Source of the DNA: Flectonema sp. DT1601
Taxonomy: Eukaryota
Assembly: GCA_964019425.1 (NCBI GenBank)
Contig: OZ025790.1
Span: 1,364,001 to 1,428,000, forward strand
DNA length: 64,000 nt
Direction: 5' to 3'
Shown here: positions 20,832 to 64,000 of the stretch, piece by piece
How positions within the stretch are numbered: the first letter of the stretch is position 1
Layout of the letters: each line of letters starts with the position of its first letter
The notes under the pieces: model-generated
Seen by the model: the letters and a program-made list of their open reading frames with translations, nothing else
What the model was told of the DNA's origin: nothing
Databases searched by the model: none
Translations under genes and position numbers: made by a program

Positions 20832-20900
20832 CTTACTTCTACACCATAACTGATGATGAGAGAATAGAGGTAAGAGGTATATGGATTACTCTCGAAACCT
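20832..20900 (+). ncRNA. Candidate hammerhead ribozyme with non-canonical strand order (family B)
   Basis: P0 CTTACTTCT 20832-40 / AGAGGTAAG 20866-74; stem I CCATA 20844-48 / TATGG 20880-84; CTGATGA 20850-56; stem II GAGAG-AAT 20858-65 / ATT-A-CTCTC 20885-93; GAAA 20894-97; stem III ACCT 20897-900 / AGGT 20875-78; GUA site at 20879; single extra bases at 20849 and 20857. Confidence 0.65.
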
Positions 20901-23209: not shown

Positions 23210-24932
23210 TAAAAACAAAAAAAACAAAAATGAACAAAATGAAATTATTTCAGTCAGCTACAGAAATCCATCTCATTCGTAGAAGCAATTGCCATGCAAA
23301 TGCCGTGAAATGTCAATCGAGGCTTTTCTTCATAAAAAGATTCATCGTTCCTTCATTTGTAATCTTACAATAACAGAAAGAGGGAGAGAGACACATTTGT
23401 AGAAATATTGAGGTAATCAGGTGTTGGTAATTGAGATGTTATCAGTCATCATTTATATTTTATTTAGGTTTTTTTAGTCATCAAATTCTAAGGTAACCAC
23501 TATCTGAATTGTTTTGGGAAATTTTTTTTTTTTAATTTTTTTTTTTTTTTAAACTTGTCAGCAATCTGCAATCCACCCCATCATGTGATGAAGTGTACTG
23601 AGGCTCTCCCTTTTGTGACAACAACTCATCATGGCCAGATGTTCCAGATAGCAATCTGAAACTGTTTTGTGTTTGAATATTTAAGTACCTGGCTGTTGAC
23701 CGTTTTCACGCAGATTATCACCTTTTCCTTTTTCTCTCTCCTAGGTTTCTTCTTTTAGTAGTAAAATGTGCTACGTTAACATATCTCGAGTGGTGATTCA
23801 CGCTCAGCGTCGGAATCTAATTAAACTGTTTTTGAGTTGAATTATATCAAATTAAAGCAACTTCATATTAATACACATGTTTATTTACAGTCGTTTGCTG
23901 CGCTGCCGCTGACAGTTAAAATTATCCAAGAGATTGTCGTTCCTTTTGAGATTGATAATACGGTTATCAGTTTTACCCAACTCGTGTGTTTTTGAGTACG
24001 TAATAGCATTATTAGTATCTCTCTCTGAGCATTTTTGACGCTCAGCAAAGGAGGTCGTTTTTGTTGCTTTTGTTAGTTGTCATCCTTGAGAAGTTAATAT
24101 CCGTAACTGTTCAAAGGAAGTGTTTTACAGGAAATCACAACCACAGAATATGTTGCACTATTCAGGAATCGAAAGCTGCTTTTCAGGGTTTTCCTTATTA
24201 CTTTACGATTGTTGCCGCCGTTTTGAACACTTCAGCAATTTTAATAAATATTTTTTGTTTTTCAGTAGATTACTAAAAAAAAGAGAAACGAATAAAGCAA
24301 CAATGCAAGTTTTTGTGACGTGTCCGGATTTGGGATTCCCTGCGGTGTCAGTCACAGTTGGTGCTGATTCTGTTGTGAGCGACGTGTTGACGACAGCGGC
24401 TGACGAGTGGGATGTCGATGCGGATAAAGTTGAACTGTCGTTCGCTGGTGATGCCCTTTGCGAAAGTAAGCGGTTAGTAGATTATGGAGTGGGTGCAAAC
24501 AGCGAGTTGGAAATACGAAAGAAGCTGGTTCGGATCTTCTGTAAAAACTGGTTTGTTGATGATAGAAAAAGGGAGAAGCTGCTTCTTTGGATGAAAGACC
24601 ACATTACGGAGGATTTATGTCTGGACACTCCCACATTCTCAGAAGATGGTTGCCTCACTATTGACAAAGGGTTGCTTCCTTCAGATGCCAAACGGATTTC
24701 CTTCCGCTATTCAAATTCCAACAGCACGCAGGTCATTTCACAAGTTACTTCTATTGGAGATATAGGTGTTTACAAATCACTTCTCTTGACCTTTCCGGTC
24801 TTAGTGGTGTCACCAGTATTGGAAGTAATTTCTTGTATAAGTGTTTACACGTCACTTCTGTTGAGTTTTCAGGTCTTAGTGGTGTTTCTAGTATTGGAGA
24901 TCATTTCTTGTCTGAGTGTTCACAAATCACTT

Positions 24933-25005
24933 GGGTAACGAAACTCGGATAGCGCGCCTCCTCGTGGTGTTGCCTGGATGCACCTTGTGTGTAACTAGAG
25001 TGCTG
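24933..25005 (+). ncRNA. HDV-like self-cleaving ribozyme
   Basis: P1 GGGTAAC 24933-39 / GTTGCCT 24969-75 with G1-U wobble; P2 AGCGC 24951-55 / GTGCT 25000-04; P3 GCC/GGT; L3 TCCTCGT; P1.1 CC / GG 24976-77; P4 TGCAC/GTGTA; candidate catalytic C24995 in J4/2 CTAGA. Confidence 0.85.
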
Positions 25006-25626
25006 ACGTATTGTTGTTGCTGTGTATTCTTTTACCCCCGTTTTATTTTCCGGTAGCCTGACCTTTAAAAAAAAAGGACAACATAGCAGAAGGTCAGGTG
25101 ATCCGGCCCGGGATACTCAGGCACCCAGAGCTCACAGGGGCCACCGGGTTTTTATTTTTTCCTTAGTGGCATGATTTCCCTTTACCCCCATTTCCTTCAA
25201 ACTTCCCCCGTTTAGTCTTTTCACGCATGGGGGGATTATAAGTTCAGGTCGCCTGAAATGTATTAACAGTATCAGCCCCGCGAGTTACTCGGGGAGCTCC
25301 CATGCAATGTGTGGAGAAAGAGGCCATCCCTCCCCCTACCTCTCTGCTTTACTACGTCGTTTTTTGTGTGTGGCATTTCTTTTCTTATATTCTTTTCTTT
25401 TCAATCTTGTTCCTTCACACGCAGTTGTTCGAGCGGTTGTGAACCACCTTGGGTCTCTTACGGTCTCCAAGCTACTGTTGTGCGAAGAAACAAATCTGTT
25501 GGTGCGGTGGCCTTCCGACGCCACCTGGACCGCAACTCGTTCACAGTGCCCTACCCGGTTCTCCACCGGACCGCCTGAGCGACGGGATCCATGGGATTCA
25601 AACCCCTAAACACTGGTTAATTTAAT
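24933..25626 (+). mobile_element. Short non-autonomous non-LTR retroposon (SIDE/RIME-like) with a 5' HDV-like ribozyme
   Basis: Absent from the paralogous locus; flanked by AATCACTT (24925-32, 25635-42), extendable to TGTTCA(CA/AC)AATCACTT; starts at the ribozyme G+1; ends in a TTAATTTAAT tail; 3' boundary uncertain (25626-25634). Confidence 0.75.
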
Positions 25627-26356
25627 TGTTCAACAATCACTTCCGTTAACCTTTCAGGTCTTAGTAGTGTTTCCAGTTCAGTTATTAAAAGACTTTCTCG
25701 GAAGTTACAAAAAAGGAACTGTTACGGTGACGTAGTCAAGTGGAGCTCAATCGGGTGTTGTAATTGAGGGGATGTGAGCAATATTATCTCATGTCATTTA
25801 TTTATTTCTCTACTCAATAATGTCAAAGTTTGTTACTGTTTTTACATTAAGAAGATCGTCACATCAATGTTTTAGAAGCAGATGCTCTCGGGGGGGCAGA
25901 CGCTTAAGAAGATTGAGAGTAGCAGATCATCACTCCACTTGGGTAGATAATACCACAGTCTGTGATGCTTTTAGATAAAAGATGTGTGTTCGCTCACACA
26001 TTCTTATCAAGTGTTTACTGGTTGCCATTGACCACCTTTTATTTTTAAAGTGTTCCCATTCCCTGGCATGGGTAATCACAAAAGCTAAACCCTGCTGATG
26101 TCCCTTCCCGAGAGGAAGTCTCCAACAGAAAGAGGCAGACAGTTTAGATACTAAGTAGTGACCTTGATAGTTTTATAATGCGAGTTAATTTACATTTTCT
26201 TTCTTCTTTGTCAAATGGCTGCATTTTTGAATCGATTCTTGATTTTTCACTTATTTTTTTTTTTTTTTCAAATATTGTAAAGAGTCTTGAGAGAAAGTTT
26301 GGACCCCATTATTTTATTTAGGAAAATTCTCCGTTGCCTACATAAAAAAAGTTGGG

Positions 26357-27746: not shown

Positions 27747-28785
27747 CGCTGTTGGGTACCAGCACTTTTTTTTTTTCTGAAAAAAAAAAAAAAAAAAAAA
27801 GGTTATGACCACCGAAATGGCCCAAAATGCACCAAACCTGTGGGAACTGGGGCTCCTCTTACCCGGTTTCCCAACTTGTGACCAAGTATTACTCATACAC
27901 CCATGACCGTAACTTAAAATACAAGAGGTGCATCACAAGCGTCAGACAGAAGTCAAGAGAAATCATTCTCCTAAATTTACTCGAAAGTCGGGGCAATTCG
28001 AACGTCAGCATTCACATTAGCAAGCAACCAGTCCTGAGTACTTAAAGAACCCAATCATTACGTGTATAAGCCACAGTCACACTTAGTATAACGTTAGTAC
28101 AGAGGACACGGATCTGGATCTGCTATGCAGGGAAGTGACTTGAACTCGTTCAACTAATTAATGTGTGCAGATACAAGCGCCGCGAATTGACGGGTCTGAA
28201 GTTATGCTTTCCGAAGAGAGCAACCACCCACGCGAGTATTATTTTGACGCTATAACCTGTGACTTTCAACACATAACAACCAGGGATAATTCTCAGTTAG
28301 GCCGCCGTCACCGTGAAGCTGCTACGAACATAACCCAACAAACAAGCAATTCCTCCAACTTTGTTCATATGTGCAGACACATAGTCAGCTACACACTTGG
28401 AGATTTTCTTAATCTCTTTAAGCTACTATGTTTCCGGCCATCTTAGAGATTGAGAATAAGAGTTCGTAGTAAAAGAGTAAAAGACTGGAGAGAAAAACGT
28501 TTGTGATTAGGCACCTGAACGTTTTACTGAACGAATCATCGTAGGCGAATTAATTTCAGCTATTTGCAAGAACTACAACAAACATTCTACGAAGAACATC
28601 AAAAGAAGAACCTGGCAGCAACGAGCAAAAGCCATCCCCGGATGGCTGGTTCTCTTTAACCGTGCTGGGGGTAGCAAGTAAACAAAAACTCAACAGGGAA
28701 ATCCACCAGTATGTAGATCCCAGTTCTATGGACTACCCAACAATAGCCGCATTCATTTTAAACAAAGCTGGTGCACCGCAGTGTC

Positions 28786-28859
28786 CCCCTTGCTTTCTTC
28801 GCTGAAGAGGGCTGGGTAAGGGGAATGGTCCAAAGAAAGATTGTTTTTAATCTTATCCC
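28786..28859 (+). ncRNA. Decayed compact permuted hammerhead (family A), GAAA segment lost
   Basis: P0 CCCCTTG 28786-92 / TAAGGGG 28817-23; stem I CTTTCTTCG 28793-801 / CAAAGAAAG 28831-39 (1 mismatch); CTGAAGA 28802-08; stem II GGGCTGGG / CTTATCCC (1 mismatch); TGGTC site 28826-30. Confidence 0.6.
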
Positions 28860-29271
28860 TTATCTCCTTTGATTCCATTATTGTTAGAGACATTCTCAAA
28901 GGAGCGACAGACCGGCGATTATCATTCGACCATTTTGACAGACATTTTAAACACCCAGAATATTGTTTTCACATGATTTTAAGAAAAACTCTGCAGGATA
29001 ATAATAATGATAACGACTGTACCATGGCACCCTCGAATGAAGGAATTCTATTCCTCACCAACACTAAGGAAAAGCGCAAGAAAGACGACTACAGCTCCGA
29101 TGAAGGAGAACTCGCACTCGTAATAAAACGAACAGATGTAGAAGAGATAGAACGCTGATCAAAAGCAAATATATGCTAGCCCGTCCTGGCGAGCTCCGAT
29201 GGACATTAAGGAATCAGTTCTTTTGAAATAGACCAATTGATGGATCCGATTTATTAATTAACTGGAATGAG

Positions 29272-29340
29272 GTCCCAAGGAACTTACTGATGAAGGCCTA
29301 AGAGGGACAAGTAGTATAAGATTAAGGCTCCTGAAACTAC
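29272..29340 (+). ncRNA. Candidate hammerhead ribozyme with non-canonical strand order and intact core (family C)
   Basis: P0 GTCCC 29272-76 / GGGAC 29304-08; stem I CTTA 29283-86 / TAAG 29317-20; CTGATGA 29287-93; stem II AGGCCT 29294-99 / AGG-CT-CCT 29325-32; GAAA 29333-36; stem III ACTAC 29336-40 / GTAGT 29311-15; GUA site at 29316. Confidence 0.7.
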
Positions 29341-29453
29341 GTATTCCACAGTGAATTATGGAACAGCAGAACAATGTGTTTTTATATTTCTTTCTTTTTT
29401 TATATTTTAATTTAGTGCACTTTTTTATAATAAACTCATATTCCAACTAAGAA

Positions 29454-30094
29454 CATGAGTGGAACCTTCTTATTTTTTTATAATTCATCCCCCCATGATA
29501 TATTTTATATAAGGGGACACCGCAGTGTCCCCCCTGCTTTCTTCGCTGAAGAGGGGCTGAGCATGAGTGGAACCTTGTTATTTTTTTATTATTCATCCCC
29601 CCATAAACATAACTCAGCCCCACTCATTTTGTTGGTATTCCGCGTTCACTGATATATTTTATATAAGGGGACACCGCAGTGTCCCCCCTGCTTTCTTCGC
29701 TGAAGAGGGCTGAGCATGAGTGGAACCTTGTTATTTTTTTATTATTCATCCCCCCATAAACATAACTCAGCCCCACTCATTTTGTTGGTATTCCGCGTTC
29801 ACTGATATATTTTATATAAGGGGACACCGCAGTGTCCCCCCTGCTTTCTTCGCTGAAGAGGGCTGAGCATGAGTGGAACCTTGTTATTTTTTTATTATTC
29901 ATCCCCCCATAAACATAACTCAGCCCCACTCATTTTGTTGGTATTCCGCGTTCACTGATATATTTATATAAGGGGACACCGCAGTGTCCCCCTTGCTTTC
30001 TTCGCTGAAGAGGGCTAACATGAGTGAAACCTTGTTATTTTTTTATTATTCATCCCCCCATAAACATAACTCAGCCCCACTCATTTTGTTGGTA
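29454..30094 (+). repeat. Tandem array of ~153-bp units (108, 153, 153, 151 bp and a partial unit)
   Basis: Units start CATGAGTG at 29454, 29562, 29715, 29868, 30019; each of the first four contains the hairpin GGGGACAC-CGCA-GTGTCCCC and CTTTCTTCG-CTGAAGA-GGGCT. Confidence 0.95.
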
Positions 30095-30099
30095 TACGT

Positions 30100-30600
30100 A
30101 CGTACGACACCTACGCCCAGCAGCAGCAGTCTTCCCACTACGAAGGACTACAACAGGAGCTGCAGCGCGAGAGAGAGGAGAAGAGCGAGCTACGGGATGC
30201 TCCGAACCCTCCAACAACAACTGGACGGATTGAGAGAAGAACTCAAGGCCCAACATGCTGAGGCGAAGAGGCAGCAGGAAACGGCGGGACGGGAAGCGAG
30301 AGAGATGCAAGAACGTTTCTTGCTAGAACTCGAAGCGCAACACGGAAGTGAAGCAAACGCCACCGGTGAAGCTGCCTCAAGACGGTATGAGGGAGCTGGA
30401 CGCCTCACGCAAGAAGCTGATGAAAGAAATCAATGAAGGGCAGGTAGCCGGACGATCGGCCATCCAAGAGCAGATGGTCCGAGAGGCCGGGAAACTGGCG
30501 CAGACTCAGAAGAGTTGGGAGAACGCAGCACGCAAGGAGCGATCCAGGGTGGATAACCTCTCGCTGGCACCGGAGTATTTGCCAGAGGGATCACGAAGAT
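30100..30600 (+). pseudogene. GC-rich frameshifted coiled-coil coding fragment, possibly from a mobile element
   Basis: Two overlapping helical-looking frames (LRTLQQQLDGLREELKAQH..., MRELDASRKKLMKEINE...); composition differs from the flanks. Confidence 0.4.
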
Positions 30601-30605
30601 TGCAA

Positions 30606-30646
30606 TGGTCCGAAGAAAGATTGTTTTTAATCTTAGCCCGAAACCA
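30606..30646 (+). ncRNA. Cleavage-site/GAAA half of the family A permuted hammerhead
   Basis: TGGTC 30606-10; CGAAGAAAG 30611-19 is the exact complement of CTTTCTTCG in the array; CTTAGCCC 30632-39 pairs with GGGCTGAG or GGGCTAA; GAAACCA 30640-46 pairs with TGGT. Confidence 0.7.
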
Positions 30647-31418
30647 ACTTGTTTGTTGTCCTACGAAATTTTGCTTTTTTTTTTTTGATTGACTGATAAT
30701 TATTAATACTAACTAGCTGGGTCCGGCGCAGTTATGACCTTAAACTGACTGTCATCTTACCTGATCCTTTTGGTTTTCATTTCTTGCTGAGTGATATGGC
30801 TATGTGCTGCCCAAATCTTTTGTGGTGCATTTCTAAAGCTTTTCGGTAAGCCCACAGTACACTTATAATGCTTTGGACAACTGGGGGTGAACGATCTTCG
30901 GTACTGTTCCGTGGTTTTCTATTTTCTTTCGTGGAGTGTGGGCATATGGCACATGTGGTCGTATTATAAAGAAAGATGTATATGAAAGAAAGAAGATTTT
31001 TTATTTTTTTCACCTTCCCCCCACTCCCAGATCGTTTCTCTTTTATTTTCTTTTGTTGTTTACAACCTGTTAGCCTCTGGGCAAGGTGGAGGCTGGAAGT
31101 CGATCACTTCCAGCCAATACTATGAAACTACAATCTTCGCGATTGGGTCCTTACTGATGCGGGCTACCCAGACCCCTCGTAGTCATCAGTTTGTATTTTG
31201 CTAACTAAACTAAACTAACTAATTAAACTCTACTTTTCTTATTCTCACTTTTCTGTTCTAAAATTAATGATACTAACTATTTTAAGCTGTACACGGGCTA
31301 ATAACTAAGAACGCCTTGAGTTATTTATAAGAAAAAAACCTTGTTTACGGTAAAGCAACTCATAAAAAAACCCCCCTTTTTTTAATCATCTCAGTTAATT
31401 TATTAAAAAAAAAAAAGA

Positions 31419-33056: not shown

Positions 33057-33074
33057 AGCAGTAGTTGTTAAGAT

Positions 33075-33244
33075 TGCCTAGATAGGACGAAGCCGAGGGA
33101 AGCCATTGCGGTGTTGACGTGCAAATCGCTCGTCAAAGCTGGGTATAGGGGCGAAAGACCCATCGAACCATCTAGTAGCTGGTTCACTCCGAAGTTTCCC
33201 TCAGGATAGCTGGAACCATAAAAGGAGTTACGCCTAATGATTAC
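33075..33244 (+). rRNA. Isolated, internally deleted fragment of cytosolic LSU rRNA (pseudogene)
   Basis: TGACGTGCAAATCG...TGGGTATAGGGGCGAAAGACCCATCGAACCATCTAGTAGCTGGTTC...CCGAAGTTTCCCTCAGGATAGCTGG is conserved eukaryotic 28S sequence; no other rDNA nearby. Confidence 0.9.
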
Positions 33245-44235: not shown

Positions 44236-45225
44236 ATGGTTTGGACTTCAGACCCGGCAGCATATTCTAAAATAATATTGCATTCAATAAGGTATCCTTC
44301 TCAGAGTGTGTCAGGGTTCCTTATTGGAGAGAGCGTTAAGAAAGACGGAGAATCAGTTCTTCACATTTCAGATGTGTTACCACTTTGCCATACCAACGTT
44401 CAGCTCTTACCAAATGCAGAAGTAGGATTTTCCGTTGCGAAGGCAGTTGCTAAGGAGAAGAAGATGAGAGTTGTATGTTTTTTTTTTATTTTGCATTTAA
44501 CAAGTATTGTAAGAACGAAAAAAAGAATGTTGGGCAGCACACGTAAACTTCCTGTAGCTTTATCAGTTTAAAGTCGGTTTGCGGGTTTTCGTGACACAAA
44601 CAAAGCATCAACAAGTGTTATATTGCTATTTTCTGTATGGTATAAGATAAAGCCAATTCTTTTTTTTTTTTTTTTTTTAATCCAACATCACAAACACAGA
44701 TTGGGTACTACTACGCTCCTCAACTCCTTGAAGAGCGGACCACCAGCATGACTCCTTTCGCTGAGAAGATTATGAAAATGTTTGTGTTTTTTATTTCGTT
44801 TTTTGGTTCAAACAAAAACAAAATAATTCACTGTGTTTTCCTAAGAGTGACAACGAAAGAAATTTTCCATTTTATCTTCCCCGAAAAAAACAAAAAAAAA
44901 AAATAAAAAAAAAATTAGGATCACTGACGGAGCTGGAAAACAATCCACGATGGCAATTCAAATAGTAAACAACCGAGTCAGTGTATCCGGAAAAGAATGC
45001 CCACTGAAGTTCTTTGATGGAAACGATTTAAAGGGTGGAAGAACCAACGAATCTGGTTGCTTCAAATTATTCAGCAAAGGCGAAGAAATACAATACTCCT
45101 CTTTCGCTCCTATTCTAGAGAGTCACATAAAGAAGGGATTGGTGTCAAAATTGATCGACTTTGAAGCGCATTTGGATAATCCGAAATTAGACTTTACTAA
45201 CGACAGCATTAATAAAGTTTTTTAA
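44236..45225 (+). CDS. EMC8: ER membrane complex subunit EMC8/9 (UPF0172), exons 44236-44472, 44700-44779, 44919-45225
   Basis: AYSKIILHSIRYP...VSGFLIG...DVLPLCH, IGYYYA, LIDFEAHLDN...N motifs; two introns restore the frame. Confidence 0.85.
44493..44660 (+). repeat. Dispersed ~170-bp repeat, here intronic; other copies at 48067-48229 and 62451-62542, diverged copies near 190-300 and 1365-1480
   Basis: TTAACAAGTATTGTAAGAACGAAAAAGAATGTTGGGCAGCACACGTAAAC...AGCTTTATCAGTTTAAAGTCGGTT shared by the three main copies. Confidence 0.85.
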
Positions 45226-47067: not shown

Positions 47068-48959
47068 GATTGTTTTTTGAGTCGCCTCAAACGAAACTCC
47101 CTTTTTACTAACTAATGTTTATGTTGACATCTTGATAGTGTCCAAGTCTCTGCTGTTTTCGGCGAACACTTGTGTGACGCTTCACCTGTCTTACTGGCCA
47201 CGTGACTTCTTTCTTCATTTCTCCCCCTGTTTTCTTTGATTAACAACTACAAATATTTTCTCAGTCGGGTACTTGATATTAATTTTGTTTCTTAATACCA
47301 AAGTCAAAGTTTCACCCCCTTCTTCTTTCTTGAAAGACTAAAATGGAAACCTATAGTTGTTATTCCTCATGTTGATCGCTTGTGGGCTGGGCTGCGAAGC
47401 CGAATTTTCTTTTCTTTTTTTGTTGTTTCCACCACAACACGGTTTTATAAGGAGGTTAATAATCTATTTTTTTTTTTTTTTTTTCTCCTTCCTCCTGTGC
47501 AGTTATCTCCTTGTTAGGGATCGCCAAGTTTTTTTTTTTTTTTTTTTTAGGGAAAAAGGAAGTTTCTGAATTCGAATGTTTAAAAGCGTTTATTCAACAA
47601 AACCCCACGAACACTTAGACGTAAATACTTTTTGTTCGCATTGAGACGACGTGAAGGACGTTGCAAGTATTGTTTGATGGGCAGTGAATGCGTTTTTTTT
47701 TCTTTTTCTGTTTCTTTTCTTTTTTTCTTATTTTTTTTGAATAGGGAATTTTCGTGTTCAGTAATACTGTCGCGATCAACAAAAAAAAAGGCTTTTTATC
47801 TGAATAGTTTTTTCCTATGGGATCCGTTTTTTTTTTCCTCTTTTTTTGCAAACGTCTACGATGAGAACTGGTGGGCTCTACCTTTGCAAAAAACGTCTGG
47901 TTATTTATTTTGAGACTTTTTTATCTTTTTTTTTCTTCTTGTGAAGTGTGTTGTATTGGGGGACAATTAAAAATATAAAAAGGGTGGTTTTTTTTTTTTA
48001 TTCTTAATGAGGTAGATTTAATCGTGGTTTTTTTTTCTTCTTTTTGTTTATTTTTTTTATTATTTTGCATTTAACAAGTATTGTAAGAACGAAAAAGAAT
48101 GTTGGGCAGCACACGTAAACCTCCTTTAGCTTTATCAGTTTAAAGTCGGTTCACGAGTTTCGTGACACAAACAAAAAATCACAGTTGTCATATTATTATT
48201 TTCTGTATAGTCGAAGATAAAGCCAATTCTTTTTTTTTTTTTTTGGGAATTCCTGCTTGGCAAAAAAAAAAAAAAATATAAACGAAATAAAATAAAATAA
48301 AATAAAGCAATTATCAACTGTTGAGATCTAAGAAGGAAAAAAAACCTTTTATCCCCCAACTCTGCTGTCCCATACCAAACCAATACGAGGATTTCTTTTT
48401 TGTGTTTGTTTTAAGTTACTTCTTGTCTTCTTAATGTTCTCCTTTACTGTAAAACTTTGTTCTTTTTTTTTTCAAAGTTTCGGGGAGATAATTTTTTTTT
48501 TTTTTTTTTGTTCTTCCAACAATAAGTTTTTTTTTTTTTTTTTTGTACCCACAAAAAACCTATTGTTCGGTTGAAAGAGCAACTGACTCTATATTAATAT
48601 TAACTGTTGCGTGCCAACAAAAAGTGTGTTGTTGAATAAAAAAAAAATATCATTTCATTTCATTTCATTTCTTTTAATTTTTTTTTTGCACCGACACAAA
48701 AAGTCGGAGAAGAAACTATTCAGATTAAGAGCCGTTTTATTTATTATATCAAAATTTTATCTATTTTTTCCCCTGAACTTTTTCATGTATTTCTGTCCGC
48801 GATCAACAAAAAAAAAAAAAATGACTGGTGTTGACCTGCATATAAAAGTAGACCCCCCTGAGCCAGTTAACCCTTAAGGCTGCTGCTGTTTCTTATTTTA
48901 TTTTATATGTTTTTTTTAAATCTCAGTAACAAAAATATAGCAAAAAAAGAAAAAAAAAA

Positions 48960-50024
48960 ATGACTGAAGCCCTCCCGATTAGAGTAGCTGAGTTCTACAG
49001 TGGAATTGGTGGTGCCCGTACTGGAGTTGAGAAATGGGCAGCTGAAAGTAACACCGAGATTGTAGTAGTTGCCAGCTACGACATGAATGACCAGGCAAAC
49101 AGAGTTTACGAATCAGTGTTCAAACACAAAGTCAGATCTAAGGGGATTGAACATTTAAAAATTGAGGAAATAAAAAAATGCAAAGCCGACATGTGGCTGT
49201 TAAGCCCTCCATGTCAACCTTTTACCTTAGGAGGAGGAAGACGTTCAGCTACTGGCGATAGTGATAACCGATGCAAGTCTTTCACTCACATTGTAAAAAT
49301 ACTTTCTGATCTCTCTGAGGAGTCTCAACCACGCTGGATAATAATTGAAAATGTGAGTCAGTTTGCTGAATCTGAGACGGTTTTGGCATTCAAAAATGTC
49401 CTCGTCGCTGCTCACTATAATCATAAAGAAGTAATTACGTCTCCCATATCTGTGGGGATTCCGTACCAGAGAAAAAGGTATTATTTATTATGTTCAAAAA
49501 CATCTGAAATTGAAGATTTTTCGAATTTCTTAAGCCGAACTCGTCCAGACCTTTCAAAACCACCATCCCTCAGCAGCTTTTTAAAATCTCGTCAGGTTGA
49601 CATCGAGATTGGTCATAAAGATGAAAAATTACTTGTCCCGGAATCGATCTTCAATGATCATAAAACTTTCATGTTTGACGTAGTATCTGGTAACAGTACG
49701 TCGTGTTCATGTTTTACTAAGGGATACTCAAAGAACTATAAAGGTTCAGGAAGCCTTTTGCTACTACCAAACCCAACCTCATCACTGAAACGATCAAAAC
49801 CAGACGAAGAGTCGATGTGGATATCTGGAGCAGAAATCATTTCATCTGGTGCGCTAATTAGATACTTCTCTCCTGATGAGTTGTTGGCTCTGCATGGTTT
49901 TCATGACTTGTTTAGATTCCCAGAAGGGATGACAAACATTCAGAAATATCGATTGATTGGTAACTCTCTCTCATGTGATGTTCATCAAATGCTTACAAAG
50001 TGTCTGATAGAAGGAAAGGAATAG
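48960..50024 (+). CDS. DNMT2: DNMT2/TRDMT1 tRNA cytosine-38 methyltransferase
   Basis: EFYSGIGG, SPPCQPFT, IENV, QRKRYY, DNMT2-type CFTKGY...GSGS, RYFSPDE, YRLIGNSL. Confidence 0.92.
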   Translation: MTEALPIRVAEFYSGIGGARTGVEKWAAESNTEIVVVASYDMNDQANRVYESVFKHKVRSKGIEHLKIEEIKKCKADMWLLSPPCQPFTLGGGRRSATGDSDNRCKSFTHIVKILSDLSEESQPRWIIIENVSQFAESETVLAFKNVLVAAHYNHKEVITSPISVGIPYQRKRYYLLCSKTSEIEDFSNFLSRTRPDLSKPPSLSSFLKSRQVDIEIGHKDEKLLVPESIFNDHKTFMFDVVSGNSTSCSCFTKGYSKNYKGSGSLLLLPNPTSSLKRSKPDEESMWISGAEIISSGALIRYFSPDELLALHGFHDLFRFPEGMTNIQKYRLIGNSLSCDVHQMLTKCLIEGKE

Positions 50025-52895: not shown

Positions 52896-53085
52896 ATACC
52901 TTCTCGGCCTTTTGGCTAAGATCAAGTGTAGTATCTGTTCTTATCAGCTTAATATCTGATATGACACCTTGTGTGTCAACGATATTATAGTAATTTCTTG
53001 TTGGGGTGTCGGGTAGCTTGGGGCAACTCAGGTCCGGCACAAGTGTTGCCCTGGAGCTGCACCACATCCAGGAGTGGCACACCCA
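52896..53085 (+). ncRNA. U2: U2 spliceosomal snRNA
   Basis: ATACCTTCTCGGCCTTTTGGCTAAGATCAAGTGTAGTATCTGTTCTTATCAG 5' end; stems IIa/IIb; Sm-like AATTTCTTG; 3' stem-loop CCTGGA-GCTGCACCACA-TCCAGG; followed by TTTTT. Confidence 0.95.
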
Positions 53086-53456
53086 TTTTTAATTAAAGTA
53101 GAAGACAAAGTCTCTTTTGAAATTTGAGAAGTTTCAGCACCGTGAAGAAGAAAAATCTCTTCTTCACATAGTACTGAATGCTGTGTTTCCCAATTAATTG
53201 TGAGGGAAATTTCCCAGATTTGGTTCCGTTGGAGTCACAATGAATGTGATTCGACGCAACTGTTGATCGAGAGTTCTGGTCAGTCGTTCTCTCGAGTTCT
53301 GATCAATCTACTGCACTATTCAAGAATCGAAAGCTGCTTTTCAGTTTTTCCTTATTACTTTACGATTGTTGCCGCCGTTTTGAACACTTCAGCAATTTTA
53401 ATAAATATTTTTGTCTTTCAGTAGATTACTAAAAAAAAGAAGCAAATAAAACAACA

Positions 53457-54599
53457 ATGCAAGTTTTTGTGACGTGTCCGGATTTAGGACTCCCTGCGGT
53501 GTCAGTCACAGTTGGTGCTGATTCTGTTGTGAGCGACGTGTTGACGACAGCGGCTGACGAGTGGGATGTCGATGCGGATGAAGTTGAACTGTCGTTCGCT
53601 GGTGATGCCCTTTGCGAAAATGAGCGGTTAGTAGATTATGGAGTGGGTGCAAACAGCGAGTTGGAAATGCGGAAGAAGCTGGTTCGGATCTTCGGTAAAA
53701 ACTGGTTTGTTGATGATAGAAAAAGGGAGAAGCTGCTTCTTTGGATGAAAGACCACATTACGGAGGATTTATGTCTGGACACTCCCACATTCTCAGAAGA
53801 TGGTTGCCTCACTATAGACAAAGGGTTGCTTCCTTCAGATGCCAAACGGATTTCCTTCCGCTATTCAAACTCCAACAGCAAGGTCATCTCACAAGTTGCT
53901 TTTATTGGAGATAATTTCTTGTCTCGTTGTTCACAAATAAGTTTTGTTGACCTTTCCGGTCTTAATAGTGTTTCTAGTATTGGACATGATTTTTTGGCTC
54001 TCTGTTTACACATCACTTCTGTTGACCTTTCCGGTCTTAGTGGTGTCACCAGTATTGGAAGTAGCTTTTTAGCTCACTGTATACAAATAAGTTTTATTGA
54101 CCTTTCAGGTCTTAGTAGTGTCACCAGTATTGGAAGTGATTTTTTGTCTAATTGTTCACACATCACTTCTCTTGACTTTTCAGGTCTTAGTAGTGTCACC
54201 AGTATTGGGAATTATTTTTTGTATTGTTCACATATCACTTCTCTTGACCTTTCCGGTCTTAGTGGTGTCACCAGTATTGGAAATACTTTTTTAGCTAACT
54301 GTAAACAAATTAATTTTGTTAGCCTTTCAGGTCTTAGTGGTGTCACCAGTATTGGAAATCATTTCTTGTCTAAGTCTTCAGAAATCACTTCACTTGACCT
54401 TTCGGGTCTTAGTAGTGTCACCAGTATTGGAGATGATTTTTTGTTTCGTTGTTCAAGAATCACTTCTCTTGACCTTTCCGGTCTTAGTAGTGTTTCCAGT
54501 TCAGTTATTAAAAGAAGTACTTGGGAGTTACAAAAAAAAACTGTTACGGTGACACAGTCAAGTGGAGCTCAATCGGGTGTTGTAATTGAGGGGATGTGA
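53457..54599 (+). CDS. Ubiquitin-like N-terminal domain + BspA-type leucine-rich repeats
   Basis: About eight ~24-aa repeats LSGLSSVTSIGxxFLxxCxxITSLD; N-terminal LSFAGDAL...LVDYGV UBL-like pattern. Confidence 0.85.
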   Translation: MQVFVTCPDLGLPAVSVTVGADSVVSDVLTTAADEWDVDADEVELSFAGDALCENERLVDYGVGANSELEMRKKLVRIFGKNWFVDDRKREKLLLWMKDHITEDLCLDTPTFSEDGCLTIDKGLLPSDAKRISFRYSNSNSKVISQVAFIGDNFLSRCSQISFVDLSGLNSVSSIGHDFLALCLHITSVDLSGLSGVTSIGSSFLAHCIQISFIDLSGLSSVTSIGSDFLSNCSHITSLDFSGLSSVTSIGNYFLYCSHITSLDLSGLSGVTSIGNTFLANCKQINFVSLSGLSGVTSIGNHFLSKSSEITSLDLSGLSSVTSIGDDFLFRCSRITSLDLSGLSSVSSSVIKRSTWELQKKTVTVTQSSGAQSGVVIEGM

Positions 54600-55242
54600 G
54601 CAATATTATCTCATGTCATTTATTTATTTCTCTACTCAATAATGTCAAAGTTTATTTCTGTTTTTACATTAAGAAGATCGTCACATCAATGTTTTAGAAG
54701 CAGATGCTCTCGGGGGGCAGACGCTTAAGAAGATTGAGAGGAGCAGATCATCACTCCACTTGGGTAGATAATACCACAGTCTGTGATGCTTTTAGATAAA
54801 AGATGTGTGTTCGCTCACACATTCTTATCAAGTGTTTACTGGTTGCCATTGACTACCTTTTATTTTTAAAGTGTTCCCATTCCCTGACATGGGTAATCAC
54901 AAAAGCTAAACCCTGCTGATGTCCCTTCCCGAGAGGAAGTCTCCAACAGAAAGAGGCAGACAGTTTAGATACTACGAAGTAGTGACCTCGATAGTTTTAT
55001 AATGCGAGTTAACTTACTTATATTTTCTCTCTTCTTTGCCAGGTGCATACAACGATAGAATGCTAATTATTATTTTTTTTTAATTAGAGATTTCATGCAC
55101 CAGTTAATATGAATTTCCTTTTGAAATTTGGGTTTGCATTTAAGAAAGAAGGCTGACAAAGGAAAGAGAGTTTTAATGCGACGAGTTATCACTTCTGTTC
55201 GTCCAGTTAGATTTCTACCTGGTTTTCTTCCTTTTCAAGTTC

Positions 55243-55347
55243 ATACCTTCTCGGCCTTTTGGCTAAGATCAAGTGTAGTATCTGTTCTTATCAGCTTAAT
55301 ATCTGATATGACACCTTGTGTGTCATATCAGATATTATAGTAATTTC
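55243..55347 (+). pseudogene. 3'-truncated U2 snRNA copy
   Basis: Identical to U2 for the first ~83 nt, ends within the Sm site; upstream flank partly shared with that of the full gene. Confidence 0.9.
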
Positions 55348-55727
55348 ATAAGTCTTACTTTGCAACAGGTATTGTCGAGTGAGGAAAGTATCAATTAACG
55401 TCACTGTAACAGATGCAAAGATGATTAGGTCGATTCAAAAAAATGTATGTCGTTCGGGCACAGCAGGTCACTATGTCTGTTTTCCTTAGAAAAATATTGC
55501 AGGGACTCAACGTTCAATCAGTCCTGCGCGTACGTTCTAACGCAAAAGGGATGTTATCGCTGCTCCACACATTACAATTTAACGACTCATGGCCTCTAAT
55601 AATGTAAAAAAAAAAAGTAGCCCTGCTTCTTTCACCTTTTGATGTTATTATTGTTTTTAAAGTTTTTAGGTTTATTTATTTATTTATTTTATATTTTTTT
55701 AAATTCGTATAAAACAGGCACAAAAAG

Positions 55728-61480: not shown

Positions 61481-62877
61481 TTTTTTTTTTTTGTTTCTCT
61501 TTTAAAATCGAAACGCTCAAGCGATCCTTTGCGGTATGTAATTTCCCTGCGTCCTAACAAGGCACTTTGTTTATTTAGTTTTTTTTTTTTTTATAACATT
61601 CTGCTGTTGTTGTTTGAATTTATTATATTTAAGCGATGACATAATTATTTTCAATGTAGTGGACTTTTTATTTTTATTTTTACTTATCTTTTTTTTTTTT
61701 TTTTTTATTATAACGTCACACAAAAAAAAATAAAAAAATAAAACACAAATCTCAGCACTCTCATTTTTGTTTTAATTCTCGCGTTTCATTTTTTAATATT
61801 TTTTATTATAAAATAAATAATCCATACTTGTTTACATTTGATACTAATTCAACAATCCATGCTGAGTCTTCGGATAGCCACGGATTAGGTACTCTGTTAC
61901 TGTGAGTTACCCTCCTTAGAGCACTCATAATATACAGTAACGTTTTGGATTATATAACTGACTAAGTTGCAATGTGTTTTTATATTTTTCTTTTTTTTTT
62001 ATATTTTAATTTAGCCCTCAAAAGTATAACTACATTTGGTACCTTTTTTAAATTAAGAAGGTTAAACGCGATGAGTAGGACAGAGGTTTGGAAAAAATAT
62101 TTATATTAATTGATGTCACGTAGTCTCCTGCTGCTGTACTTGGACAAGGTGGAAAGTTATCTCTTGATGTAGTATGCCCCCCCCACTGTGCTGAAACTAA
62201 TAAAATAATCCTCTACGGGATTACGTTCATCTTCCTATCGCAGTATTGTAGACCTCTTTGAGTAGTCTACCAATACTACGGGTGGTCTGATGGACTTGCT
62301 AACTAGTTATTTATTAATTTTGTAATGACTTCTCTAAAATGTCAACCGAAAAACGGAATGTGACTTCTGCTTGTTTTGATTGGCATCTTGTCACACTCAT
62401 ATAGTCTTTCCTCCGGGTTTCGGTGGCGTCTTTTTTTTTTTTTTTTTTTTGCACTTAACAAGTATTGTAAGAACGAAAAAAGAATGTTGGGCAGCACACG
62501 TAAACCTCCTTTAGCTTTATCAGTTTAAAGTCGGTTCACGAGGTGCACAAGCAACAGATCCCTCCTCAATCCATACCACCCCCAAAAAAAAGAAAAAAAA
62601 AAAAACGATCGCTGTATTTTATTGTCTTAATCTTGTACCCCCCCATATTTGGTATTTTTTTTCCCCATCGGATGTGATGTGTGTTAATTATTATTTTTGT
62701 TCCTTCCCTCAGCATCTTCGACAGCACGTATGGGACTTTAGCAACTGTTCTCTCTTTTCATTGTAACTAAGTTTGGCCGAACCCTATATTCCGGTTTAAG
62801 TTACTTTATATTTCATCGCGATATCAAATAGATTATAATGTCTCCCCCCGCAGTTAAATTCCCCCCCTCAATGCTCA

Positions 62878-64000
62878 ATGCACAGATCTGTTTGGATTGT
62901 ATTGCTGAGTCTATTCACGGATCGAGTACTTAGTCAGACGTGTCTAATTGCAACAGGTGCGTCTCTGTCATCTGCTAACGGGAAATATATTTACAACGAC
63001 GCTGAGGGATATTGGCAGCTTCAGAATTCTTATTTCTATCTACTCCGCGACAAGAAGAAGTGGTACGTCTATTATGGTAATAAGAAATATTACAAATACG
63101 ACGATGACGGTGGAGATGATAAGAAGAAGAGTTGTTCTACTACAGATCCAGAACAGATAGCAGAGTGTTGCAATCAGGGGAAAAAAGAAAAGAAGTTGGG
63201 GGGCGAGAATTGTCCGGCTTTCGAAGACTGTCCTCAACCAACTGCAGTTCCAACGGCAATCCCAACGGCGGTGCCGACAGCAATTCCAACAGCGATTCCA
63301 ACGGCAATCCCAACGGCGATTCCAACAGCGATCCCAACAGCGATTCCGACAGCGGTGCCGACAGCGATTCCAACAGCAATCCCAACAGCGATTCCAACGG
63401 CGATCCCAACGGCGGTGCCGACAGCAATTCCAACAGCGATTCCAACTGCAATTCCAACGGCAATCCCAACGGCGATCCCAACAGCGATCCCAACAGCAAT
63501 TCCGACAGCGGTGCCGACAGCGATTCCAACAGCAATCCCAACAGCGATCCCAACTGCAATTCCAACGGCAATCCCAACAGCGATTCCGACAGCGGTGCCG
63601 ACAGCAATCCCAACAGCGGTGCCGACAGCGATTCCAACAGCAATTCCAACAGCGATTCCAACTGCAATTCCAACGGCAATCCCAACGGCGATCCCAACAG
63701 CGATCCCAACAGCAATTCCGACAGCGGTGCCGACAGCGATTCCAACAGCAATCCCAACAGTGATTCCAACAGCGATCCCAACTGCAATTCCAACGGCAAT
63801 CCCAACGGCGATCCCAACAGCGATCCCAACAGCAATTCCGACAGCGGTGCCGACAGCGATTCCAACAGCAATCCCAACAGCGATTCCAACAGCGATCCCA
63901 ACTGCAATTCCAACGGCAATCCCAACAGCGATTCCGACAGCGGTGCCGACAGCAATCCCAACAGCGGTGCCGACAGCGATTCCAACAGCAATTCCAACAG
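62878..64000 (+). CDS. Secreted or surface mucin-like protein with (PTA[I/V])n repeats, runs off the window end
   Basis: Open frame from ATG 62878 (MHRSVWIVLLSLF..., signal-peptide-like), a Cys-containing domain, then 12-bp repeats from 63238 encoding PTAVPTAI; absent from the ORF track because there is no stop in the window. Confidence 0.85.
   Translation, partial: MHRSVWIVLLSLFTDRVLSQTCLIATGASLSSANGKYIYNDAEGYWQLQNSYFYLLRDKKKWYVYYGNKKYYKYDDDGGDDKKKSCSTTDPEQIAECCNQGKKEKKLGGENCPAFEDCPQPTAVPTAIPTAVPTAIPTAIPTAIPTAIPTAIPTAIPTAVPTAIPTAIPTAIPTAIPTAVPTAIPTAIPTAIPTAIPTAIPTAIPTAIPTAVPTAIPTAIPTAIPTAIPTAIPTAIPTAVPTAIPTAVPTAIPTAIPTAIPTAIPTAIPTAIPTAIPTAIPTAVPTAIPTAIPTVIPTAIPTAIPTAIPTAIPTAIPTAIPTAVPTAIPTAIPTAIPTAIPTAIPTAIPTAIPTAVPTAIPTAVPTAIPTAIPT

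Follow-up and report, generated by a model that had tools for sequence, protein, structure and literature searches.

Type-CSG hammerheads, in which the blocks run in the order C, S, G, were defined from two similar, unique sequences obtained solely as soil metagenome DNA (Eckert, Friedrich, Weinberg and Weinberg, 2023; PMC10085705). According to the accessible part of that paper, CSG-1 and CSG-2 cleave at the predicted site at 0.004 and 0.026 per min, respectively, and the authors rate the evidence for the type below that for type SGC, there being two similar sequences and no host. A full-text literature search on type-CSG hammerheads returned this paper alone, and the literature on diplonemids and ribozymes, judged by title and abstract opening, yielded none on CSG hammerheads (subscription journals lay mostly outside the coverage of both searches). 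The accessible text of PMC2837043, PMC544870, PMC13725137 and bioRxiv 10.64898/2026.07.22.740005 adds nothing on CSG.

Three further systems bear a likeness to the locus described here. Type-SGC hammerheads (HRIMA-1 and variants, 583 sequences from metatranscriptomes of virus-like RNAs) share its non-circular permutation, its crossing helices and a helix that connects stem I with stem II, but have another block order (PMC10085705, accessible part). The hammerheads of Penelope-like elements and retrozymes also lie in repeats of eukaryotic genomes, protists included, but are of types I and III and occupy paired terminal repeats or tandem units (accessible parts of PMC4209133 and bioRxiv 10.64898/2026.07.22.740005), whereas the order here is CSG. 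Finally, the HDV-like ribozymes of trypanosomatid L1Tc/ingi/SIDER elements are likewise self-cleaving RNAs in a euglenozoan mobile repeat and a polycistronic genome, where they free L1Tc/ingi RNAs from co-transcripts; they belong to another class and sit at the 5' end of the element (PMC4035085, accessible part), whereas the ribozyme studied here lies at an apparent 3' end and would be cut in its middle.

In the window, by which we mean the whole analysed stretch of 64 000 nt of contig OZ025790.1, we found three sequence families of CSG hammerheads, named A, B and C (Table 1). Our preferred reading, to which we assign a probability of roughly 0.6, is that family A is a type-CSG hammerhead that likely cleaves itself slowly after A29316 and likely marks where the RNA of a short repeat, non-coding and retroelement-like, is processed at its 3' terminus, the host being a euglenozoan and likely a diplonemid. 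The ribozyme type is a known and very rare one that is already published; within the literature searched, the eukaryotic host lineage, the three sequence families and the repeat context are new.

Table 1. Features of the CSG hammerhead families and their surroundings in the window (positions are those of the window; cut sites are predicted)
Feature	Positions	Strand	Details and basis
Type-CSG non-circularly permuted hammerhead, family A	29272–29340	+	Sequence, pair checks, descriptor; type after PMC10085705 (accessible part)
Family A, P0 5' strand	29272–29276	+	5/5 pairs; pair probability 0.95–1.0 in nested folding
Family A, block C	29283–29299	+	Stem I strand 29283–86, CUGAUGA 29287–93, stem II strand 29294–99 (palindromic AGGCCU)
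Family A, P0 3' strand	29304–29308	+	Pair check
Family A, block S	29311–29320	+	Stem III strand 29311–15, A17 = 29316, stem I strand 29317–20
Family A, AUUA linker after stem I	29321–29324	+	Sequence; supplement Fig. S10 text of PMC10085705 (accessible part)
Family A, block G	29325–29340	+	Stem II strand 29325–32 with 2-nt bulge, GAAA 29333–36, stem III strand 29337–40
Outer 7-bp helix 29263–69/29342–48	29263–29348	+	7/7 pairs; in MFE and centroid
Likely short dispersed repeat unit, ribozyme at 3' end	29172–29346	+	Related contigs
T-rich tract ending in AG	29372–29414	+	55 nt below predicted cut; also at 61970 without ribozyme
Second intact CSG hammerhead, family B	20833–20900	+	23/23 pairs; CUGAUGA followed by U; cleavage predicted after 20879
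Decayed family B copy, core and cut site altered	628–704 (about)	+	90% over 68 nt; alignment
Family C CSG hammerhead without GAAA/stem III end	28786–28859	+	Holds blocks C and S; 8-bp P0; 8/9 pairs in stem I
3' half of family C, with its S and G blocks	30604–30646	+	20/20 pairs with C block at 30005
153-bp tandem array, 3.9 units	29496–30095	+	Every unit carries family C block C alone

The first-pass annotation had described family A as a permuted hammerhead with an uninterrupted core, which proved correct and corresponds to the published type: the blocks follow in the order C, S, G, and stems I and II cross P0 and stem III. Types I, II and III, which are circular permutations of one another (CGS, GSC, SCG) with a nested three-way junction, were rejected on the basis of this order, and there was no Rfam hammerhead match. 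Reading the sequence bore out the earlier placement of CTGATGA, GAAA and a GUA site (29314–29316) with no inserted bases, and a pair-by-pair check recovered all 20 of the pairs proposed beforehand, every one of them standard: stem I (4/4), stem II (6/6, with 29328–29 bulged), stem III (5/5 between 29311–15 and 29336–40, A15.1–U16.1 counted in) and P0 (5/5). The three stems are paired directly at the core, and the hammerhead core as defined in the accessible part of PMC3088659 (C3-U4-G5-A6-N7-G8-A9, G12-A13-A14, A15.1-U16.1, H17) is complete. We regard the assignment of family A to the type-CSG hammerheads as very probable. The cut itself, between 29316 and 29317, is predicted by analogy with other hammerheads.

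The one core deviation noted previously, A–U in place of G–C at 10.1–11.1, was also found (A29294–U29332), and families B and C have G10.1–C11.1. The G10.1–C11.1 pair has been termed highly conserved, and a conserved extra base after A9 noted, in the accessible part of PMC4209133, while that of PMC3088659 states that pairing at this position is required but not G–C identity, and reports a natural U–U there as well as very short natural stems II. The published RNAmotif pattern demands G10.1–C11.1 and would therefore miss the family A copy (PMC10085705, accessible part).

As far as the accessible part of PMC10085705 describes them, CSG-1 and CSG-2 share with family A the C–S–G order, four helices including the P0 helix that joins stems I and II, a length of about 66–69 nt, a two-nucleotide linker between P0 and stem III, AUUA after stem I and a cleavage site some 45 nt in from the 5' end. 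Stem III differs by one swapped pair (GUAG/CUAC in family A versus GUUG/CAAC). Family A further departs from the published pair in having GUA instead of GUC, A–U at 10.1–11.1, a shorter stem I (4 bp), a bulge in stem II and linkers of greater length. Its outer helix, which the first-pass annotation had not included and which is absent from the drawings of CSG in the accessible part of the same paper, would on the folding model enclose P0 and stem III, giving a three-way junction. The published sequences have neither known host nor context (PMC10085705, accessible part), whereas here the ribozyme comes in three sequence families on a nuclear contig of a eukaryote, and in a repeat setting.

Nested folding of family A yielded P0 and stem III alone (MFE −13.5 kcal/mol, z −0.21); this is expected where stems I and II cross these two helices, and the result neither supports nor refutes the two crossing stems. 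Rfam gave no match at 29272–29340; window-wide, three matches reached gathering score (two to U2 and one to an LSU piece), and seven weak ones fell between 27700 and 31420, none to a ribozyme. A strict descriptor, applied to both strands of the window in all six block orders, matched once, at 29272–29340; among 3589 block-wise dinucleotide shuffles it matched 111 in any order, 17 in the order CSG and nine as CSG with a P0 of at least 5 bp. Taken alone, family A is thus only modestly above chance, which would not settle the matter when many windows are scanned. With a looser descriptor there were two matches in the window (29287 and 20850), both with AUU after stem I, and among 3951 shuffles it gave one match in 111 and two in three, or one match in 17 and two in none when the AUU linker was included; both descriptors were defined once the copies had been seen. 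Recurrence of CSG within the window is a stronger argument against chance than the single-copy statistics. The idea that the family A motifs are a chance arrangement of short pieces could appeal to the nine of 3589 shuffles, the unremarkable fold z-score, the missing Rfam match and the descriptors tuned afterwards, but it would have to accommodate two intact families and one broken family in one window, two AUU-bearing matches in 0 of 3951 shuffles and a layout that agrees with the tested CSG-1 and CSG-2 (PMC10085705, accessible part), and we consider it very improbable.

Searches of wider collections with a core plus stem III pattern gave 61 viral matches, none of which reached a stem I of 4 and a stem II of 3, and 57 metagenomic matches, one of which did (L108). 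As the contigs of CSG-1 and CSG-2 did not turn up in these matches, the scan lacked a positive control, and its outcome carries little weight as to absence. The stem III of L108 fails, and it was rejected as a CSG candidate. An exact 26-nt pattern taken from the window matched no viral contig.

Family B differs in sequence from family A and combines a 9-bp P0 and a G10.1–C11.1 pair with one bulged A in stem I; the extra base that it has between positions 9 and 10.1 is also found in hammerheads of Penelope-like elements and retrozymes (accessible parts of PMC4209133 and bioRxiv 10.64898/2026.07.22.740005). P0 measures 5, 9 and 8 bp in families A, B and C, respectively. Family C is broken in the window. 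One RNA contig from run X5 passes from 28774–28823 to 30604–30714, the letters between being not known, and this probably represents the intact family C order. Between the two family C halves lies a frameshifted, coiled-coil-like coding fragment (30100–30600) with no Pfam family at threshold, and a similar stretch opens a 6.3-kb contig of run X1. Besides block C, each 153-bp unit of the tandem array has a hairpin of 8 bp that lies over the P0 strand of family C, as well as two complementary stretches of 7–8 bp that cross.

Pairs are kept despite differing stems in all families (27/27 in A, 23/23 in B, 20/22 and 20/20 in C), and the AUU linker after stem I is common to all three and to the published CSG pair (for the latter, PMC10085705, accessible part). 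The three families are not alignable by sequence, and such apparent covariation among them may be convergence. Within family A, no two-sided stem change was seen among the 40 differences listed, of 109, from related contigs. Every CSG copy in the window is intergenic and on the + strand, and for two of the three families what the window contains is either broken or includes a decayed copy.

Related contigs were taken from four of the six sequencing runs found, a small share of each. Pieces similar to the family A unit occur in contigs of runs X1 and X2 with flanks unlike those of the window. Their starts vary among the matches listed (29172, 29184, 29213 and 29303). Of the five listed pieces that reach 29346, three leave at 29346–29347 into other flanks and two continue as the window does. 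Such boundaries would fit a non-autonomous, SINE-like retroelement, for which one expects, besides a target-site duplication, scattered copies that begin variably and end at one point. In one of the X2 contigs (record 8, 29213–29322), three letters and one gap differ, none of them in the core or in stems I and III, and one of them adds a P0 pair. In run X1 a family A unit stands after an element that ends at 31208 and before an 8-nt motif; in run X5 the end at 31208 is followed by a short run and then by the same motif, with no family A unit present. The two contigs come from different samples at 80% likeness, and their resemblance to a filled and an empty site is no more than suggestive.

In the window no target-site duplication was found, the single 6-nt match between the unit flanks lying off the boundaries. 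The 40 translated window frames (26 plus 14) include no reverse transcriptase or endonuclease family, and neither an RT nor a GIY-YIG gene of the Penelope-like kind was found among them. A second copy of 29317–29346 is absent upstream in the window, which counts against copying from a ligated circle, because such copying would tend to leave one. These three results speak against a retroelement of the usual kind. The layout of Penelope-like elements and retrozymes was rejected as well: the window holds one family A copy without a paired repeat, and the 153-bp tandem carries C blocks alone.

The element at 30720–31208, which contigs of all four runs compared cover, ends in a pseudoknot-like stretch (31145–31189, + strand) that has 10 nt (CUUACUGAUG), a P0-like 5-bp helix and GUAGUC in common with family A. 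It lacks both a partner for stem I and a G block, its CUGAUG is hidden in a 6-bp helix, and its GAAA at 31124 is AAAA in related contigs. When compared by eye with consensus features, this stretch fitted neither a GCS hammerhead nor an HDV-like, twister or pistol ribozyme.

The window is eukaryotic, with a U2 snRNA, a kinesin and Fcf1. In a tree of the window Fcf1 protein with 35 homologues, hand-chosen from 120 listed, the protein fell in a clade with one from a euglenid and those of trypanosomatids (100/98) and, inside that clade, in a separate group of transcriptome proteins (99/99). Seventeen of the 18 ORFs of at least 250 aa lie on the + strand. A 116-nt fragment of 28S rRNA (33063–33178) directly follows the kinesin/U-box ORF, between genes. 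One-strand gene runs and scattered pieces of 28S rRNA are also found in Diplonema papillatum (PMC10161547, accessible part), and the host, a euglenozoan, is likely a diplonemid. Being intergenic and on the gene strand, the CSG copies would be read as part of a polycistronic precursor, and the T-rich tract below family A is a possible trans-splice acceptor.

This setting also invites another explanation, in which the host has adopted CSG ribozymes as cis cut sites in its polycistronic pre-mRNA, with the cut governing upstream 3' ends or turnover and the downstream piece being re-capped by spliced-leader trans-splicing. The intergenic, gene-strand position of all copies and the T-rich tract with its AG after family A would suit such a role, as would the ribozyme-bearing retroposons in Leishmania 3' UTRs that have been linked to mRNA down-regulation (PMC4035085, accessible part). 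Yet a common strand carries little weight with three separate loci only (1 in 4), the flanks change between related contigs so that the position relative to genes is not fixed, the T-rich tract occurs without a ribozyme too (at 61970), and the nearest long downstream ORF starts 2.1 kb away. We therefore consider host adoption improbable and favour a processing site that belongs to the repeat, although this mobile-element role is less certain than the identity of the ribozyme and, as a prediction, stands slightly below even odds.

On our preferred reading, P0 and stem III are predicted to fold first as local helices, after which stems I and II would cross between the P0 and stem III loops and build an ordinary hammerhead core, with P0 taking over the job of the loop I–loop II contact. 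Established hammerhead chemistry assigns the part of the base to G12 and that of the acid to G8. Promoted by these two residues, attack by the 2'-O at A17 would leave a 2',3'-cyclic phosphate and a 5'-OH. The repeat would be transcribed passively inside the host + strand polycistronic precursor, the cut would free or define the repeat RNA, as HDV-like ribozymes do for L1Tc/ingi in the trypanosomatid sister group (PMC4035085, accessible part), and a reverse transcriptase encoded elsewhere in the genome would then copy this RNA in trans.

How well the window copy of family A performs is a separate matter. It is the sole copy in the window without an inserted base at the core, and it had been proposed as the best single test construct, a ranking that we found poorly supported. 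Neither of the other families has so weak a stem I (−3.8 versus −8.1 and −14.1 kcal/mol), a slipped register of stem II is favoured over the active one by 2.9 kcal/mol (−6.5 versus −3.6 kcal/mol), and a decoy pairing of AGG 29278–80 with CCU 29297–99 is present in the MFE structure. The related contigs, moreover, have T at 29277 in all three cases that cover it, which extends P0 to six pairs, and two of the three are one G short at 29279, which removes the decoy; by this comparison the window copy looks slightly drifted. The concern about dimers raised at the outset is borne out by calculation, since the stem II strand AGGCCU is self-complementary, with a modelled energy of −9.1 kcal/mol. Family A is probably not the best construct by itself, and the intact family B copy is at least as good: it offers G10.1–C11.1, a longer P0 and complete pairing (23/23) at the cost of the U after CUGAUGA and the bulged A in stem I.

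Such drift could go further, leaving family A a true CSG descendant but a (nearly) inactive relic trapped in the slipped stem II and the decoy hairpin. The computed energies, the differences at 29277 and 29279 from related contigs and the decayed or broken state of neighbouring copies all point that way; the core and all four helices are nevertheless intact, crossing helices and tertiary contacts are not scorable by nested folding, and natural hammerheads function with one or two stem II pairs (PMC3088659, accessible part). We judge the relic unlikely, if less so than host adoption, and expect that the family A copy would probably show measurable cleavage. One 105-nt RNA contig (X5 record 23) begins exactly at 29317, the first base past the predicted cut, in a run without cover at 29257–29279. 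This start is a possible in vivo hint of cutting, but it comes from a single study, is the end of a contig and would arise likewise from a branch at position 17, which is variable, so that it was not counted as evidence.

More tentatively, and with the odds rather against it, CSG hammerheads could mark an undescribed class of short mobile repeats, comprising several families, that cut themselves from polycistronic transcripts in diplonemid-like euglenozoans. If true, this reading would supply CSG, so far an orphan permutation, with a first host and a biological role, and would place self-cleaving sites between the genes of co-transcribed clusters. On a single eukaryotic contig, three stem sequences unrelated to one another supply structural variation that is missing from the published pair (PMC10085705, accessible part); the common AUU linker emerges from them, and the genomic setting allows tests of the role.

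Other repeats and genes were also observed in the window. Two elements have long terminal inverted repeats of about 190 bp that are 89–90% alike (1698–1890/3281–3473 and 26356–26542/27568–27747), the second being made of 31-bp subrepeats, and both are likely non-autonomous DNA transposons. A dispersed repeat of about 200 bp is present in three copies that are 89–95% alike (44471–44674, 48044–48244 and 62431–62560), and a 12-bp tandem array of about 63 copies (63238–64000) runs past the window end. The U2 snRNA gene (52896–53087) has a second copy at 55243–55437 with a 96% identical 5' part (119 nt) and a diverged 3' part. A gene of ubiquitin-like plus BspA-type LRR make-up, containing 75-bp repeats, is likewise duplicated (24120–26213 and 53312–55041), its first copy being broken, and a gene of the C-5 cytosine methyltransferase family (PF00145) lies at 48960–50024.
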